DNA from: a virus
Lineage: Duplodnaviria > Heunggongvirae > Uroviricota > Caudoviricetes
Virus record (IMG/VR): IMGVR_UViG_2563366941_000003
DNA length: 11,809 bases
Reading direction: 5' to 3' (one strand)
Made by a program: the position numbers and the translations under genes
Shown: positions 355 to 9,980 of the stretch, in pieces
Position numbering within the stretch: the first letter of the stretch is position 1
Layout: each line of letters opens with the position of its first letter
Notes under the pieces: generated by a model
The model's input: the letters and a program-made list of their open reading frames with translations, nothing else
Databases searched by the model: none
What the model was told of the DNA's origin: nothing

Positions 355-382
355 AAAAACAAAAAACCCGCCGAAGCGGGTA
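355..382 (-). terminator. Rho-independent terminator of the two-gene cassette
   Basis: Minus-strand RNA ACCCGC-UUCG-GCGGGU hairpin (GC stem, UUCG tetraloop) followed by a U6 run, 4 nt after the stop of the 386-1489 gene. Confidence 0.65.
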
Positions 383-385
383 TAC

Positions 386-1489
386 TCAAACAATCTGGAA
401 AATATTTCTTGGATTTGTAATAGGTCTGTTGATGGAGAACAACTCACGAATTAAATCTTGGCTCAAGCCAGTTTTCATAAGAATTCTTAGCCAGGTTGCA
501 TCATCCAGCATTTCAATCGCCTCGGCCAGCATGCCGGGTTCTTCAGGGCGCAAAAGTTCATCACCAGGTTCAACTCTCGTATACCCTCTGGAATTAAGAT
601 GCATATAGCCAGTTCTTGCCTGTTCCTGGGTCAATAAGCCTAATGCGCTGGCTCGATAAATACACATTTTAAGGCTGATTTTCCATCTAAGTTTAAATTC
701 AACCAGAGCATTCCAGTCGAATTGCTTACCTCGTATTCGTGGAAATTCTTTAATGAAAGATAACCTGGGAACTAATAAGGCGCTCGAAAAGTGATCGGCT
801 TGTGATTCCGTAAGTTTATCACCTGTCGTTATGCCCTCATGCATTACTAAATGCCCTAATTCATGACCTAAATCAGAGCGAAATCTACATATGCTTTTTT
901 TAACATTGTTCCTGATGATAACAGGCCTGTTATTGTGAACAGTAAAAGCATCAACACGATCATCGACTCCCGTAACATGCGCAACGATTACCCCTAAACT
1001 CTCCGCCAATTTAACCATTGATGATATAGGGCCAAGACCTAAATTCCAGGCACGGCGACAATCTTCTGCCACTCGCTCAATATCATTCGGAGTAAGTAAT
1101 TCAGCCCCTGGGTGCTCCGGTATGTTAACGTCAGGAAATTCGATTTCACCTTCAACAGCAGAAATTATAATATTAAGAATCTCAGCCCTGGCCAATACAC
1201 TATTAGTCAGCGTTTGAGTCCTGGACTTCTTACTCCGAAAATGGCAGACATCACTTTCCAGAGCGTATTTTCGTTCAGTAAAAAGAAAACTGGACTTAAT
1301 CATAAGCGCTGAAGATATTAACTCAAGACATTGCTCCGATGGCCTGCACCCCTTCTCCAGTTTGCTAACGAATTGCTTTGTCTTGCCAATTTTTTCGGCT
1401 AACTCTTCACAAGAAAGCCCAACAGCCATTCTCGCTAGTTTGAGCTTATCACCCCGATACTCAGTGAAGTTATTCACCTGATGTTCCAT
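386..1489 (-). CDS. Fusion protein: N-terminal XRE-family HTH + ImmA/IrrE-type (M78, COG2856-like) zinc metallopeptidase + ~130-aa C-terminal domain of unknown function
   Basis: ORF track 386..1492; ATG at 1487-1489 (GTG at 1490-1492 is an alternative). HTH-like segment LSCEELAEKIGKTKQFVSKLEKG near the N-terminus. HExxH zinc motif HELGHLVMH mid-protein. Overlaps the upstream gene by ~20 nt, suggesting translational coupling. Confidence 0.75.
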   Translation of the reverse strand: MEHQVNNFTEYRGDKLKLARMAVGLSCEELAEKIGKTKQFVSKLEKGCRPSEQCLELISSALMIKSSFLFTERKYALESDVCHFRSKKSRTQTLTNSVLARAEILNIIISAVEGEIEFPDVNIPEHPGAELLTPNDIERVAEDCRRAWNLGLGPISSMVKLAESLGVIVAHVTGVDDRVDAFTVHNNRPVIIRNNVKKSICRFRSDLGHELGHLVMHEGITTGDKLTESQADHFSSALLVPRLSFIKEFPRIRGKQFDWNALVEFKLRWKISLKMCIYRASALGLLTQEQARTGYMHLNSRGYTRVEPGDELLRPEEPGMLAEAIEMLDDATWLRILMKTGLSQDLIRELFSINRPITNPRNIFQIV

Positions 1490-2120
1490 CACTGCTCACA
1501 TCCAAATCTTTATCCTTCGTACGCCGACGAAGAGGCACCTTATTAATCTCCGCTTCGTCAGGGAGTGTGTTATAATCAAGAGGCATAAGCGGCATCGATG
1601 CTGTAGATTGATGAGAAACTATACTAATCTGAGCACCATAAGTATTAAATCCAACAAGAGCTACCTCCCAACGAGGCAGTGTGGACTCTAATTCACCATC
1701 GCCCTCTTCGGATAAAAAAGGCTCAGCTATGACTCGCCATGTAATATCTTGCTCAGCCTCAACATCACCAAACAATGAGAGCTGCTCATACTCTACTTTA
1801 TTTCGACGCAGACGATGTTTCTTTTTGGGGTTATTAATGCAATCTTTGGTAAATTGTAGCGGAACTTTATTTAAAGCAACTACATAGTCCAACCCCTTGG
1901 AAATCATCTCAAGGCCAGGAATTGCATCTTCATTTTGAATAAGATGATTTCTGACCCAATCATAAGCCCTTACACCTTCAGACCAGTTGCTGTCTAATGC
2001 GTGCTTATGATAGTACAGCTGCTCAAGTACGTTAGCGATCTCCGCCAACAAGTGGCGAACATAGTTTTCAGCAAGATAAGGTTGAAATTCCCAACAAGGA
2101 GCTAACTGATTTTCATTCAT
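1470..2120 (-). CDS. Hypothetical 216-aa protein, first gene of the cassette; candidate toxin/effector partner of the HTH-peptidase
   Basis: ATG at 2118-2120, stop at 1470-1472. No motif I can recognise. Basic patch NPKKKHRLRRNK and an acidic C-terminal half. Read as coding from ORF length, overlap with the downstream gene and promoter/terminator context only. Confidence 0.65.
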   Translation of the reverse strand: MNENQLAPCWEFQPYLAENYVRHLLAEIANVLEQLYYHKHALDSNWSEGVRAYDWVRNHLIQNEDAIPGLEMISKGLDYVVALNKVPLQFTKDCINNPKKKHRLRRNKVEYEQLSLFGDVEAEQDITWRVIAEPFLSEEGDGELESTLPRWEVALVGFNTYGAQISIVSHQSTASMPLMPLDYNTLPDEAEINKVPLRRRTKDKDLDVSSDGTSGE

Positions 2121-2149
2121 TTCAAGTTTCGCTTTTTTTAGAATTCGTA

Positions 2150-2190
2150 AACCACATATTTTCGCATTTTTCTATTTTTGTCAACCAGAC
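2150..2190 (-). promoter_or_regulatory. Candidate sigma70 promoter for the two-gene cassette
   Basis: Minus-strand TTGACA (plus coordinates 2179-2184), 17-bp spacer, then AAATAT (2156-2161), ~35 nt upstream of the ATG at 2120. The -35 is perfect, the -10 is weak. Confidence 0.4.
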
Positions 2191-2195
2191 TAATG

Positions 2196-2217
2196 CAAAA
2201 ACCCGCCGAAGCGGGTT
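2196..2217 (-). terminator. Rho-independent terminator downstream of hok
   Basis: Same ACCCGC-UUCG-GCGGGU hairpin as at 355-382, followed by U5 on the minus strand. A further GC stem (about 2258-2281) lies in the hok 3' UTR. Confidence 0.6.
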
Positions 2218-2285: not shown

Positions 2286-2441
2286 TTACTCCTCAGGTTC
2301 GTAAGCTGTGAAGACAGCGACCTCCGTCTGGCCGGTTCGGATTCGTACCTCGCAGAGGTCTTTCCTCGTTACCAGTGCCGTCACAATGACGGTTAAACAG
2401 ATGACGATCAGGGCGATTAACATCGCCTTTTGCTGCTTCAT
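2286..2441 (-). CDS. hokD: Hok/Gef-family type I toxin (51 aa membrane peptide)
   Basis: MKQQKAMLIALIVICLTVIVTALVTRKDLCEVRIRTGQTEVAVFTAYEPEE, with the Hok hallmark hydrophobic N-terminus and the LCEV...R..G..EVA.F.AY core. GGGGAA Shine-Dalgarno 8 nt upstream. Closest to HokD/RelF as I recall it; family assignment is firm, paralog less so. An in-frame upstream ATG at 2496-2498 gives the 70-aa track ORF (mok-like leader frame). Confidence 0.85.
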   Translation of the reverse strand: MKQQKAMLIALIVICLTVIVTALVTRKDLCEVRIRTGQTEVAVFTAYEPEE

Positions 2442-2678
2442 AGCCTGCTTCCCCTTGCCTTTCGGCACGTAAGAGGCTAACCTACATTTGTGAGACATAG
2501 ATTGGGCCTCAGATTAATGTTAAGCGTCTTGCAGGACGCGAAATGTTAACTGGGGCTTTTCTCTATCTGCCTTTCAGTGTTCATGCCTGAGACAGATAGC
2601 CTCAAGCACCCGCAGCCATTCTACTTAACTCACGTCACCTCGCCAATATGAAATCAATCAGAAAGGTGATCCATAAAA

Positions 2679-3365
2679 TCACTCCTTCTCTTCTTTTCCG
2701 TAGTGGAGTTGGCCAATTTTGATAAGAGGGCGTCCCTGAGATTTGCGGTGTAGATTGGTATCGCGCAGAGAATACACACAGCCACAATATTCCTGCTGAT
2801 AGAATTTTTCGCGCTTGCTGATTTCAATCATACGGGACGAGCCGCCCTGCTTGCGCCAGTTATAATCCCAGTACACCATACCCGGATAATGCGCAACAGC
2901 TCGCCGCCCACACTCGTTAACCTGCTGCATATTTTTCCAGCGTGAAATGCCCAGTGAACTGCTGATCACACTGAAACCATTTTCAGCAGCGTACAACGCT
3001 GTCCGCTCAAAACGCATGTCAAAACACATGGTACAACGGATCCCCCTCTCAGGCTCCCATTCCATTCCTTTGGCACGTTCAAACCAGTTGTCGGTGTCGT
3101 AATCAGCATCGATAAACGGCACGCCGTGTTGTTCAGCAAAGCGAATATTTTCATCCTTACGAATTAAATACTCTTTCTGAGGATGAATGTTCGGGTTGTA
3201 GAAAAAGATGGTGTAGTCGATTCCCGAGGCCTGAAGCGCCTCCATCACTTCACCGGAACATGGAGCACAGCAAGAGTGCAGTAGTAGTTTGTTTGCCCCG
3301 TTTGGGAGCTCCAATTTAGGCCGTTTGAAATCAGCAATAGTCATAAATATTTTTATTGGGGTCAT
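2679..3365 (-). CDS. queH: QueH-like (DUF208) epoxyqueuosine reductase homolog
   Basis: N-terminal [11 protein letters not shown] signature plus CTMCFDMRF and EYCGC cysteine motifs typical of DUF208/QueH Fe-S proteins. Start ambiguous between ATG 3363-3365 and ATG 3342-3344; neither has a clear Shine-Dalgarno. Confidence 0.65.
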
Positions 3366-3959: not shown

Positions 3960-4730
3960 TCACTTTTCCGATACAACACGGCGGGAAGAATCAGTAATCT
4001 GTCGAACAATATCCCGGTGCTTGTTCAGCTCCCGCAGCGCGGCGCAGACTCGCTCCCACTTCTGAACATCACTTTTCGCCCTGCGCAGCGCCAGGTTTGC
4101 CCTGCGAAGGGACGGAAAAATCAGCTCATCTGCTTGCGTTTCGGTAAACGATGGCAACGGCTGCACAATGTCCGCCACAGTTTCTGTTTTAATTTCTTCC
4201 TGTGTTGCGGCTTCCCGGACTGGTAACGCAGCACCTGCTGGCTGAGGAAAGGCCTTACCATCACTTTCCGTTACCAGCGCGGCTTTCGGCTCTGCTGGTA
4301 AATTATCGCCCGGCATGCAGTAACGAAATTTACCGTTCTGATTAACGCGTGCCAGCCGCCCCGTTGCGGTTACCACCGCCAGCGTGGAAGCAACCTTGCG
4401 AGTACTGACACCGAACTTACCCGCCAGTTCCTCACACGTTTTAGCCCCATCCTGACCGATAAACTCAATCATCATGTCTGCGGTAACTTTTTGTTCGACC
4501 TCCCCGGTCAGCATATCCTGTGCTTCAGATTTTACTGGCCGCTCTTCGGTTACCCGGGATTCACCTTCGCCAGCCAGAAACCAGGTGTGACCAGTTTTAT
4601 CAACGACGCCTTTTCTTTTGAGTTCCCACAGCTCGTTGAGAACCTCTTCACGACTGATATCAAGTCGCGCGGCCAGTTCTACCGATGTGGCTTTTCCCAT
4701 TGCTTTCAGTGCGTCAAATACGGTTTCCAT
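3960..4730 (-). CDS. Hypothetical prophage protein with two winged-helix-like repeats
   Basis: ATG at 4728-4730 with GGAGG Shine-Dalgarno 8 nt upstream; the track start at 4748 is a TTG. Two internally similar HTH-like segments (around [28 protein letters not shown] and [22 protein letters not shown]). Confidence 0.6.
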
Positions 4731-6329: not shown

Positions 6330-6755
6330 TCAATGCACAGCCACAATATTTCCTGCAGGGCCACCACGATTCATCTGGTTGAAACCAGCGATCGCCACTG
6401 CGACAAAATCATCAGCGTCTCTCACCAGTCGTTCCCGCGTCTCCACCAGCTCCCGAAAATAAGCTGAACTGTGGCTGCGCATTCGGGCCACCAGCAGAGG
6501 CGGCATTGCTTTTTCGATCGCTGGTAACAACGCCTGAATTTTTTTAACCGCATCAGGAGTGTCTTTCTCCACCCAGCGGAAAATTTTCTGGGTATTGCGA
6601 GCCAGGGCTTCCGGATGGCTGTCGTCATATAATTCCGGGAACGTCATACCAAGCTCAAAATAAGCCCGGGTTATTTCAGCTGCCGGAACTTTTTCACCGT
6701 CCGGATGCGCCCAGGCATTCATCGCCATGCGGATGTGCTCATGCCTGATTTTCAT
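6330..6755 (-). CDS. ydaT: YdaT-family protein (Rac prophage CII-like / toxic protein)
   Basis: MKIRHEHI... N-terminus and ...IVAVH C-terminus at ~140 aa match the YdaT family as recalled. Overlaps ydaS by 17 nt. GGAG Shine-Dalgarno. Confidence 0.7.
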   Translation of the reverse strand: MKIRHEHIRMAMNAWAHPDGEKVPAAEITRAYFELGMTFPELYDDSHPEALARNTQKIFRWVEKDTPDAVKKIQALLPAIEKAMPPLLVARMRSHSSAYFRELVETRERLVRDADDFVAVAIAGFNQMNRGGPAGNIVAVH

Positions 6756-7014
6756 GAATCAACTCCGATGCATTTGGTGTGTTAGCCTTGAATCCAACAG
6801 GTAAGCCGTCGGTTGGATTCGGGTAAATATCAGGCCGGAGTTCATGAGGTGTAACCTCGAAATTCGTTACTTCAGCAACACGTAATGCTTTTTCAGGGCT
6901 GAATCTTTCATAGCCCCCCAGCACTCGACTTACATGCACCTGAGATAAACCCGTTAGCTTCCCAAACTGTAGCTGGGTGATATGTTTCTCTTTTAAATAG
7001 TCTCTTAAGTTCAT
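6739..7014 (-). CDS. ydaS: YdaS-family Cro-like HTH regulator
   Basis: ATG at 7012-7014 with AAGG Shine-Dalgarno; the track start at 7020 is TTG. HTH segment QLQFGKLTGLSQVHVSRVL. ELRPDI motif shared with K-12 YdaS as recalled. Divergent from the repressor gene. Confidence 0.7.
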   Translation of the reverse strand: MNLRDYLKEKHITQLQFGKLTGLSQVHVSRVLGGYERFSPEKALRVAEVTNFEVTPHELRPDIYPNPTDGLPVGFKANTPNASELIHENQA

Positions 7015-7121
7015 AGCCAACCTTCTACGTTATGCCTCGAGCAAATATTAGCCCTGCTAATTTTAAAGATCAATAGCCAGACTATCTTTGATAATATTGG
7101 TAAAACAAATAAACTCTATGT
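7015..7121. promoter_or_regulatory. Divergent promoter/operator region of the immunity switch
   Basis: 107-bp AT-rich intergenic region between the divergent cro-like and repressor genes. Inverted repeats TTAGC-N3-GCTAA (about 7048-7060) and AAAGAT-N13-ATCTTT (about 7065-7089). racR ATG has no Shine-Dalgarno, possibly a leaderless transcript. Confidence 0.4.
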
Positions 7122-7583
7122 ATGAAAAAAACACGCGAAGTGATTGCAACTCCAGAAGCGAGCAAGAATTTAAAAGCCGCATGGAATGCAAGAAAAAAAG
7201 AGCTGAAGCTGACTCAAGAGCTGGCGGCTGAGTTGTTGGGATTCGAATCTCAAGGCACCGTTAGCCAGTATCTGAACGGCAAGATACCGGTAAATACCGA
7301 CGCTGCGCTAAAATTTGCGGCTCTGTTAAAGGTAAAACCAGAGGACATTCGAGAAGACCTTAAAGACTTAATGAATTATGTAAGATCATCAGATACTTAT
7401 GATGATAACTTTTCAGGCAAAGGATGGAGGCTGGTCAATGAAGAACAGGCAGAGTTACTTAACCTCTTCGAGATTCTACCTGCGTCAGAAAAAGCCAAAC
7501 TCCTTAACCAGCTACGTGGACTAAACAAGCTCTACGAGGAAGCCTTCGAGAACATGCTGGCACTAAAGAAACGTAACCAGTAG
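7122..7583 (+). CDS. racR: RacR-like prophage repressor (XRE-family HTH)
   Basis: HTH segment LTQELAAELLGFESQGTVSQYL. Position and orientation match racR relative to ydaS/ydaT in Rac. 153 aa with no S24 peptidase domain. Symbol assigned by synteny plus family resemblance. Confidence 0.6.
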   Translation: MKKTREVIATPEASKNLKAAWNARKKELKLTQELAAELLGFESQGTVSQYLNGKIPVNTDAALKFAALLKVKPEDIREDLKDLMNYVRSSDTYDDNFSGKGWRLVNEEQAELLNLFEILPASEKAKLLNQLRGLNKLYEEAFENMLALKKRNQ

Positions 7584-9032: not shown

Positions 9033-9603
9033 TTCACCCTCCTGAGGGTTGGTAATTAAGGAGTTCTCCACTGGTCAGGTGGAGTGCGTGCGCCGGACAC
9101 GGGTGAGCATCCGGCACTGACAGTTTACTGAAAGGATATGTCCCTGAAAAGTCAGGGCATAACGCGAAAGCGCACGGCGAAATTGGTCTCTCTGTACGGT
9201 GTCGTTAAATTTAGTTCGACCGTGCGCTTCCGGTTGTGGCACTCCGCGAAATGGCGCGGCGGTAAGTATGGCTGGGGTTTCCTCCATTGCTCCAGAAAAT
9301 GCACCGGGTTGTCAGGTTGACCATACGCTTAAGTGACAACCCCGCTACAACGCCCTCTGTTATCAATTTTCTGGTGACATTTGGCGGTATCAGTTTTACT
9401 CCGTGACTGCTCTGCCGCCCTTTTTAAAGTGAATTTTGTGATGCGGTGAATGCGGCTATGCGCACGCGGAACAGTTAAAGCAGTAAGGCGGTATTTTACG
9501 GGCGTAACGAGCATCAACTAACCCGGCGTTAATTGTTAACTGGTTAACGTCACCTGGAGGCACCAGGCACTGCATCACAAAATTCATTGTTGAGGACGCG
9601 ATA

Positions 9604-9792
9604 ATGGAAACGTTATTACCAAACGTTAATACGTCTGAAGGTTGTTTTGAAATTGGTGTCACTATCAGTAACCCTGTATTTACTGAAGATGCCATTAACA
9701 AGAGAAAACACGAACGGGAGTTATTAAATAAAATATGCATTCTTTCAATGCTGGCCCGTTTACGTCCGATACAAAAAGGATGTGCACAATGA
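9604..9792 (+). CDS. Hypothetical small protein (62 aa), in the position occupied by kil-type genes in Rac/lambda
   Basis: ATG 9604 with GAGG Shine-Dalgarno 8 nt upstream. Stop overlaps the next start (ATGA at 9789-9792). Function assigned by position only. Confidence 0.45.
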   Translation: METLLPNVNTSEGCFEIGVTISNPVFTEDAINKRKHERELLNKICILSMLARLRPIQKGCAQ

Positions 9793-9980
9793 ATACAGCA
9801 TTTGCACTTGTTCTGACAGTTTTTCTTGTTTCCGGAGAGCCAGTTGATATTGCAGTCAGTGTTCACAGGACAATGCAGGAGTGTATGACTGCAGCAACCG
9901 AACAGAAAATTCCCGGTAACTGTTACCCGGTCGATAAAGTTATTCACCAGGATAATAACGAAATCCCGGCAGGTCTTTAA
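9789..9980 (+). CDS. Small secreted/membrane protein (63 aa) with N-terminal signal-peptide-like segment
   Basis: ATG 9789 overlaps the upstream stop. MNTAFALVLTVFLVSGEPV hydrophobic leader followed by a Cys-containing hydrophilic tail. The track's 81-aa ORF includes an unlikely upstream extension. Confidence 0.5.
   Translation: MNTAFALVLTVFLVSGEPVDIAVSVHRTMQECMTAATEQKIPGNCYPVDKVIHQDNNEIPAGL

Follow-up and report, generated by a model that had tools for sequence, protein, structure and literature searches.

The stretch of DNA analysed here (11,809 nucleotides, referred to as the window) belongs to a lambdoid E. coli prophage and carries a cassette of two overlapping genes, with all features of the cassette lying on the minus strand. 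The upstream gene (1470..2120) codes for a protein of 216 amino acids and is referred to as rmrT, the predicted toxin gene. The downstream gene, rmrA, codes for the predicted antitoxin or sensor, and its open reading frame can be read as 386-1492 (368 amino acids) or as 386-1489 (367 amino acids). RefSeq places its start at the ATG at position 1489, which yields an overlap of 20 nt between rmrT and rmrA (386..1489) and agrees with the gene arrangement originally predicted for this locus. Upstream of rmrT lies a region comprising the putative promoter, a candidate operator and the 5' leader (2121..2186).

A scan of the window for terminators called hairpins at 2217-2200 and 381-366, in line with the expectation of terminators on both sides. 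The former is the terminator of hok and coincides with the upstream copy (2197..2216) of a 20-nt direct repeat, AAAAACCCGCCGAAGCGGGT; the latter is the cassette's own terminator and coincides with the downstream copy (362..381), the two copies being identical over all 20 nt. Because of this repeat, the inserted cassette of 1,835 bp may be drawn either as 382..2216 or, equally validly, as 362-2196. Both hok and sok adjoin it. GC content amounts to 41.5% in the cassette versus 48.6% in the rest of the window, and it is below that of every window of the same size outside the cassette (minimum 43.1%); an AT-richness previously judged by eye is thereby confirmed by computation.

Related PPompW phages display an empty site at the hok terminator, and the 20-nt repeat is single-copy in phages with such an empty site. 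Removal of the cassette in silico restores a continuous alignment to phage LC567818.1, with 94% identity across the junction. The cassette is hence a discrete insertion, and the hairpin of the hok terminator (2197..2216) marks its insertion point. Near-identical cassettes are found in 237 of 5,426 complete E. coli genomes, with rmrT and rmrA present together in every one of these 237 carriers. Orthologous cassettes occupy other prophage slots (tail and lysis regions) and a Tn7-like element, and a cassette of 83% identity in a tail-gene slot displays the same terminator after rmrA. The description of the locus as a self-contained accessory cassette of the prophage is thus supported by its discrete insertion, its own upstream region and its own terminator. 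The comparison with empty sites shows how the module is packaged, with a terminator and a plausible promoter of its own, and that it moves among prophage slots.

The original prediction attributed to the cassette a promoter of its own with a perfect −35 box. The TTGACA hexamer is indeed present at 2184-2179 and is kept in all orthologous cassettes. However, the best −10 element by eye, AAATAT (2161-2156, spacing 17 nt), matches the consensus in only 3 of 6 positions, and a consensus promoter scan called no promoter at TTGACA 2184-2179. For these two reasons a promoter belonging to the cassette, lacking a strong consensus match, is considered plausible. In the leader (2121-2186), the pattern AAAAA(T/A)GCGAAA occurs twice as a direct repeat. 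Among orthologues with 54-83% protein identity, conservation extends from GGTTGACA up to the ATG, with divergence setting in directly upstream. The region 2121-2186 may serve as an operator.

RmrA displays Pfam matches above cut-offs to HTH_3 (E 5e-07; nt 1304-1444) and to Peptidase_M78 (E 6e-11; nt 647-964), corresponding to an XRE-type helix-turn-helix (HTH) and an M78 zinc-peptidase domain. The zinc-binding and catalytic motif HELGH is located at residues 209-213 (nt 851..865), with H209, E210 and H213 as key residues, and alignment of RmrA sequences points to E228 (nt 806-808) as the third zinc ligand. These four residues are invariant across 8 aligned RmrA sequences, including that of the verified RosmerTA system of E. 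coli OLC-716. The region C-terminal to the M78 domain is conserved as well, in line with the predicted combination of an HTH, an HExxH peptidase core and an additional C-terminal domain. RmrA is further matched by the PADLOC model RmrA PDLC03943 over residues 12-351 (E 6e-105) and shares 29% identity with the verified RmrA over 301 aligned residues (E 2e-35). Matches to the PADLOC models of CapP (E 1.6e-14) and CapH (1.5e-4) and to CapP in the PDB (7t5t) are also found. The reading of this HTH/ImmA-IrrE fusion as the antitoxin in a pair of the RosmerTA type is supported by the match to PDLC03943.

The 216-amino acid protein had been regarded as a possibly new effector. It is, however, matched over its full length by an existing RosmerTA toxin model, PADLOC RmrT PDLC03929 (E 4.6e-25, residues 7-209 on profile positions 5-195 of 198), and it is also assigned to PHROG 5786. 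A search for related loci with a shallow alignment recovered 2 loci. The exhaustive profile search yielded a coherent family of proteins of about 200 amino acids and of narrow distribution, in which all 60 aligned members match PDLC03929. In five relatives of RmrT an HTH/M78 gene follows directly downstream, mostly overlapping (four at 17-28% identity, and one from Xenorhabdus at 54%). The gene pair is present in 8 of 8 contexts with enough flanking sequence, in one of which the HTH and peptidase parts form two separate genes, and every RmrA partner tested has PDLC03943 as its best match.

RmrT is an acidic, soluble protein (pI 4.9, GRAVY −0.54) with a disordered C-terminal tail. No transmembrane or membrane-anchoring segment was found, the maximum Kyte-Doolittle mean over 19 residues being 0.84. 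Judged by its sequence, RmrT is therefore not a membrane toxin, and a membrane-depolarising mode of action as in the Gordonia phage Kita system (see below) is ruled out by the absence of a hydrophobic segment. The polar residues D43, R51, E110, Q113, R129 and E133 are conserved in the family, a set which suggests that RmrT may be an enzyme. A nuclease of the PD-(D/E)xK type was also considered, but the catalytic D...(D/E)xK motif of such enzymes is missing: no (D/E)xK is present and no Lys is conserved at a frequency of at least 60% in the family. While profile searches detected HTH_3 and Peptidase_M78 in the fusion protein, the 216-amino acid protein matched nothing in Pfam and NCBIfam, and a Pfam scan with relaxed thresholds, covering the 60 members of the family, returned scattered chance matches only. 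A sequence-profile search of the PDB with the family gave no hit either (best E 0.23). An AF2 model built from 60 sequences reached a pLDDT of 83.7 and supersedes a poor one from 14 close sequences (pLDDT 61). Structure prediction of this protein was thus successful, but the fold search with the model returned no PDB or viral-structure match.

Both proteins match PADLOC RosmerTA models, therefore PADLOC would call the locus RosmerTA. The cassette is an already catalogued kind of system that is recognised by existing defence models. A check of the locus with PADLOC had been proposed along with the original prediction, and the outcome contradicts the idea of an undescribed module, given that the models PDLC03929 and PDLC03943 cover them full length. 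Based on these data, we consider it likely, with a probability of roughly 0.78, that the cassette represents a RosmerTA-type two-gene toxin-antitoxin or abortive-infection module of the subtype RmrT-PDLC03929 / RmrA-PDLC03943, and that a lambdoid prophage of E. coli carries it as a mobile moron of 1.8 kb.

Phage protection by RosmerTA has been shown for other subtypes only (Millman 2022 preprint; Ernits 2023). The verified RosmerTA of E. coli OLC-716 protects against phage, and its rmrA-deleted version was not transformable (Millman 2022 preprint). It resembles the present cassette in having two overlapping genes with the toxin first, an antitoxin of about 370 amino acids with XRE HTH, M78 domain and C-terminal region, and identical HExxH...E residues; both of its genes are likewise recognised by the RosmerTA model set. 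In contrast, the matching models are PDLC03935/03949 there and PDLC03929/03943 here, and no homology between the two toxins could be detected (BLASTP, E 7; probability of 0.3% in hhalign). The RosmerTA of Gordonia phage Kita is phage-borne and defends against specific coliphages (Ernits 2023), and it too combines a protease antitoxin of the RmrA type with a toxin without known domain. The Kita toxin, however, is membrane-localised and depolarises the membrane (Ernits 2023), whereas the RmrT described here is acidic and soluble. Because the sequence of RmrT is related neither to that of the verified toxin of E. coli OLC-716 nor to that of the membrane-acting toxin of Kita, we infer toxicity and phage defence of the predicted pair from the partner and the architecture. 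A toxin-antitoxin system in a prophage of E. coli E101 makes clpP essential, with T46S as suppressor mutation (Rousset 2020 preprint). It was considered as a member of the present subtype and rejected; it probably belongs to the OLC-716 subtype, because the OLC-716 toxin has T46 while RmrT has W46 in this position.

Other known systems share parts of this architecture. The pairs CapH/CapP (of CBASS), ImmR/ImmA and DdrO/IrrE also combine an XRE HTH with an M78/COG2856 metallopeptidase, but they consist of a separate repressor and protease controlling another operon, whereas RmrA is a fusion protein paired with a toxin. No CBASS, ICE or SOS-like regulon was found among the genes neighbouring the cassette. 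PD-lambda-2, which defends E. coli against phage, likewise contains a toxin-like gene that is followed by one for an HTH-peptidase fusion. It differs in comprising three genes, the first being HigB-like, and in that toxicity resides in the fusion protein (Vassallo 2022). The present cassette, by comparison, has two genes and an upstream protein without relationship to HigB, and natural lesions suggest that this upstream protein is the toxin (see below).

It may be argued that the cassette serves addiction only, i.e. that it is a true toxin-antitoxin pair which, as hok/sok next to it, stabilises the prophage without excluding other phages. Its position next to hok/sok and its constant association with mobile elements would fit such a role. 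However, both RosmerTA systems tested so far protect against phages, and the slots taken by the cassette are typical moron positions, in which defence genes of prophages are often grouped together. Addiction and defence are not mutually exclusive, and we regard a role in addiction alone as unlikely. Reversed polarity, with a toxic HTH-peptidase protein that is neutralised by the 216-amino acid protein, appears less probable still. It has been proposed for classical Xre/COG2856 pairs and reported for PD-lambda-2, where the fusion is toxic on its own and the upstream gene relieves this toxicity (Vassallo 2022). The only two lesions seen in the cassette, an IS5 insertion and an internal deletion, both fall into rmrT while rmrA is undamaged, in agreement with RmrT as toxin and RmrA as antitoxin. 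In the two natural E. coli genomes concerned, an intact peptidase gene of identical sequence adjoins a broken 216-amino acid gene, a constellation that would be lethal under reversed polarity and hence counts against it. Moreover, it is the deletion of rmrA that was unobtainable in the verified RosmerTA (Millman 2022 preprint), and the gene order is the same in both systems. An ImmA-like anti-repressor function, in which RmrA would cleave the prophage repressor with the 216-amino acid protein as cofactor, draws on the repressor-like protein at 7122-7583 (153 amino acids; HTH_3 only, no Peptidase_S24) and on literature precedent in ImmA/ImmR and IrrE/DdrO, yet it is hardly credible, as RmrA brings an HTH of its own and invariably occurs together with RmrT, and as the empty site in closely related prophages, together with orthologous cassettes in tail and lysis regions of unrelated prophages and in a Tn7-like transposon, speaks against an induction switch whose protease belongs to, and is needed by, the element's own immunity region.

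For the predicted RosmerTA module we hypothesize the following sequence of events. The operon would be transcribed in the lysogen from its own promoter and repressed by the HTH of RmrA, probably at the conserved GCGAAA repeats, with soluble RmrT being held inactive. Infection by another phage may then perturb RmrA, the M78 peptidase acting as the signal-responsive element by analogy with ImmA/ImmR, IrrE/DdrO and CapP/CapH. The substrate of the peptidase could be either RmrA itself or RmrT, with cleavage at a conserved site. In RmrA the invariant linker motif F84-R85 is a candidate for this site, in RmrT the helix E110-x-x-Q-L-x-L-F. RmrT set free in this way would arrest or kill the cell before the cycle of the invader is completed. 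A search of the literature for a mechanism of RosmerTA found none, nor were any papers found that cite the RefSeq accessions of the two proteins or PDB entry 9vzy. As a tentative extension, which is possible and on balance doubtful, the RmrT family PDLC03929 may comprise enzymes of a fold and activity unseen among toxins, controlled by the M78 peptidase through site-specific cleavage at one of these two sites and not through simple sequestration.

The value of the cassette as a new catalogue entry is small, with both genes already known to PADLOC and the cassette itself present in about 4% of the complete genomes of E. coli. It offers a clear-cut and frequent natural instance of a RosmerTA toxin family that is soluble and without known fold match. 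Knowing how RmrT acts and which signal the peptidase responds to would close a genuine gap in the understanding of RosmerTA systems as a whole. If RmrT is indeed controlled by cleavage, RosmerTA would gain a protease-gated mechanism of activation.

At the sequence level, the minus-strand genes rmrT and rmrA form a cassette of an already known kind. RmrT (216 aa; 1470–2120, minus strand) matches the RmrT model PDLC03929 of PADLOC-DB (E 4.6e-25, residues 7–209 to profile positions 5–195 of 198), and RmrA matches the RmrA model PDLC03943 (E 6e-105, residues 12–351). These are the two parts of RosmerTA, a system with a Zn-peptidase in the antitoxin and no known function for the toxin, for which a version with rmrA deleted could not be transformed (Millman et al., 2022). 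The PADLOC comparison suggested with the original prediction thus confirms a RosmerTA-like toxin-antitoxin or defence cassette, but the module is not undescribed, as had been proposed: each gene is recognised by defence-system models already in use.

The open reading frame called for rmrA begins at a GTG (386–1492, minus strand, 368 aa); RefSeq places the start at the ATG at 1489, yielding 367 aa and, as anticipated for the two minus-strand genes, an overlap with rmrT (20 nt). Numbered from the GTG at 1492, the protein matches Pfam HTH_3 at residues 17–63 and Peptidase_M78 at residues 177–282, both above curated cut-offs; other RmrA residues are numbered from the ATG. Together with the HELGH motif at residues 209–213, these matches support the proposed fusion of an XRE-type HTH with an HExxH zinc-peptidase, and the metallopeptidase site is intact as judged from its residues. 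RmrA of E. coli OLC-716, source of a verified RosmerTA system, displays 29% identity across 301 residues (E 2e-35) and has in common H209, E210, H213, E228 (a putative third ligand) and the linker pair F84-R85. This pair (window about 1235–1240), located between HTH and peptidase, is invariant in 8 of 8 aligned RmrA sequences, a set that takes in the verified OLC-716 RmrA at 28% identity, and may be a site of cleavage or regulation. The best match in a PDB profile search is 9vzy_A (E 2e-11), a solved 393-residue 'HTH cro/C1-type domain-containing protein' of the same HTH and M78 architecture, for which a literature search found no accompanying paper.

For RmrT, profile searches found no Pfam or NCBIfam match, but the protein falls in PHROG 5786, whose function is unknown; the effector is thus uncharacterised yet already catalogued. 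A word-indexed search returned only 21 close clusters, all Enterobacterales. A profile search run exhaustively over 1.84 billion representative proteins yielded 65 relatives at E ≤ 1e-3, nearly all 190–225 aa long; 60 of these align coherently, and all 60 match PDLC03929. Conserved positions are D43, W46, G49, R51, Y53, P87, P98, E110, Q113, W128, R129 and E133. From the alignment of 60 sequences, AlphaFold2 produced a confident model (pLDDT 83.7, pTM 0.73), in which two long helices pack against a sheet of six strands; residues 108–115 form a short conserved helix, and the C-terminal tail is of lower confidence. No convincing structural match was found in the PDB (every Foldseek E ≥ 0.08) or among BFVD viral predictions (every E ≥ 0.016). 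Several type II restriction enzymes (NaeI, BglI, SwaI, BcnI and 3ndh) turn up repeatedly in the weak Foldseek matches. No D...(D/E)xK motif is conserved among the aligned relatives, and a nuclease-like fold is kept only as a weak lead from the model. A nucleic-acid-directed enzyme appears conceivable but doubtful, with the remaining weight spread over other targets in the cytoplasm. Action on the membrane is unlikely; RmrT of phage Kita is membrane-depolarising (Ernits et al., 2023), whereas RmrT in this cassette is acidic (pI 4.9), hydrophilic and devoid of a transmembrane segment by hydropathy.

Compared with the OLC-716 proteins (supplementary table of Millman et al., 2022), the toxins display no similarity (BLASTP E 7; hhalign probability 0.3%), and the OLC-716 pair maps to the PADLOC sub-models PDLC03935 and PDLC03949, whereas the pair studied here maps to PDLC03929 and PDLC03943. 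A similar RmrA next to a dissimilar RmrT agrees with the view that common RmrA pairs with diverse RmrT toxins (Ernits et al., 2023). Literature searches found no paper testing the PDLC03929-type RmrT subtype and none citing the RefSeq accessions of rmrT or rmrA. A prophage Zn-peptidase toxin-antitoxin system renders clpP essential, with T46S as suppressor mutation (Rousset et al.), which suggests that ClpP restrains some RosmerTA toxins. That system appears to be of the OLC-716 subtype, since T46 is found in the OLC-716 toxin and W46 in RmrT of the window. By analogy with the family and with ImmA/ImmR, IrrE/DdrO and CapP/CapH, RmrA would autoregulate the operon via its HTH, neutralise RmrT and respond to infection via its peptidase domain, whereupon RmrT would be freed and the cell would be stopped.

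RmrT members at 17–28% identity are each directly followed by an HTH/Peptidase_M78 gene, mostly overlapping. Such distant pairs are found in a Tn7-like element, adjoining a DNA polymerase gene, adjoining methyltransferase genes (with HTH and peptidase on two genes) and in a P22-like prophage beside a cI-like repressor; closer orthologous pairs are located between tape-measure and minor-tail genes, between Q and holin in Serratia prophages, and in Xenorhabdus. In the relative beside methyltransferase genes, a metagenomic one (L008, 2910–4036), the two adjacent genes encode an HTH part of 152 aa and a peptidase part of 223 aa; RmrA is naturally split there, or else a frameshift divides it. All six partners tested best match PDLC03943, so toxin subtype and antitoxin subtype travel together.

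In cassettes with toxins 54–83% identical, the upstream DNA is kept from GGTTGACA to the start codon, and the DNA just upstream of GGTTGACA diverges completely, which sets the 5′ border of the mobile unit. The conserved stretch speaks for a working promoter and operator, and contains two AAAAA(T/A)GCGAAA direct repeats as candidate RmrA operators. As to the promoter originally proposed, TTGACA is present (2184–2179, minus strand), but a consensus promoter scan found no acceptable −10 to pair with it; by eye, the best candidate is AAATAT with a 17-nt spacer. A terminator scan located hairpins with T-runs on both sides, as expected (2217–2200 and 381–366). The cassette located among tail genes, 83% identical, terminates with the same ACCCGCTTCGGCGGGTTTTTT terminator, hence the downstream terminator is the cassette's own. 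Gene identities, conserved pairing and autonomous packaging are evident from these comparisons of sequence.

Of 5,426 complete E. coli genomes, 237 carry rmrT and 237 carry rmrA, with 224 records at ≥ 99% identity, carriers including E. coli 042, ABU 83972 and VR50; none was found among the deposited phage genomes of the phage collection. The tables of matches contain two lesioned cassettes, a small number (n = 2): FDAARGOS_1249 (NZ_CP069459.1) has IS5 inserted in rmrT, PS1Thumoskin9 (NZ_CP180607.1) has an internal deletion in rmrT, and rmrA is intact and identical in both. The direction is the one that a toxin role of the 216-aa protein predicts, and argues against a reversed toxin/antitoxin polarity as reported for PD-lambda-2 (Vassallo et al., 2022).

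The surroundings are those of a lambdoid prophage, with a Hok-family toxin gene and a sok RNA match adjoining the cassette, as first described. A hokD/mok-type ORF (2286–2498, minus strand; Hok models, PHROG MokW-like) and an Rfam sok match (2436–2611; 120 bits) place a type I toxin-antitoxin system (2286–2611, minus strand) directly upstream of RosmerTA. Just past hok, a 228-aa homologue of the epoxyqueuosine reductase QueH (2679–3365, minus strand; Pfam E 1e-65, PHROG 3217) represents a tRNA-modification gene among the phage's cargo; the small genes found at this place in E. coli 042 are different ones. The backbone comprises O/P-like replication, cII/YdaT-like and cro/YdaS-like genes, a repressor and DicF. 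The DicF sRNA match (9369–9420, plus strand; Rfam, 77 bits) and a DUF1482 gene (9735–9980, plus strand) indicate a Qin/Dic-type immunity and cell-division-inhibition region. The repressor-like protein (7122–7583, plus strand; 153 aa) has an HTH only and lacks an S24 autoprotease domain, and faces YdaS-like (cro-type; 6739–7020) and YdaT-like (cII-type; 6330–6755) genes on the minus strand; the window gives no evident route for its inactivation at induction.

The cassette is AT-rich, as had been noted by eye: its GC content is 41.5% versus 48.6% in the remainder of the window, below every equal-sized window outside it (minimum 43.1%). Its two terminators carry the identical 20-nt sequence AAAAACCCGCCGAAGCGGGT (362–381 and 2197–2216), a perfect direct repeat corresponding to the hok terminator hairpin. 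In PPompW and Stx2a-converting phages, the sequence that lies past the cassette in the window comes straight after the hok (gef) terminator, and removal of 382–2216 in silico results in a single continuous 94%-identical alignment over the junction. The cassette is therefore a 1,835-bp insertion bounded by a duplicated terminator. At least 120 IMG/VR contigs carry the 20-mer, and a single one among them (L026) has it twice (2816–2835 and 4651–4670), exactly 1,835 nt apart, around the same cassette. The duplication most likely stems from recombination via a common portable terminator rather than being a transposition footprint.

What remains of interest is a confidently modelled RmrT fold without known relative, in an experimentally uncharacterised toxin subtype, within a family whose mechanism is not established for any system. 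Shared portable terminators may serve as recombination joints that move morons among prophage slots.
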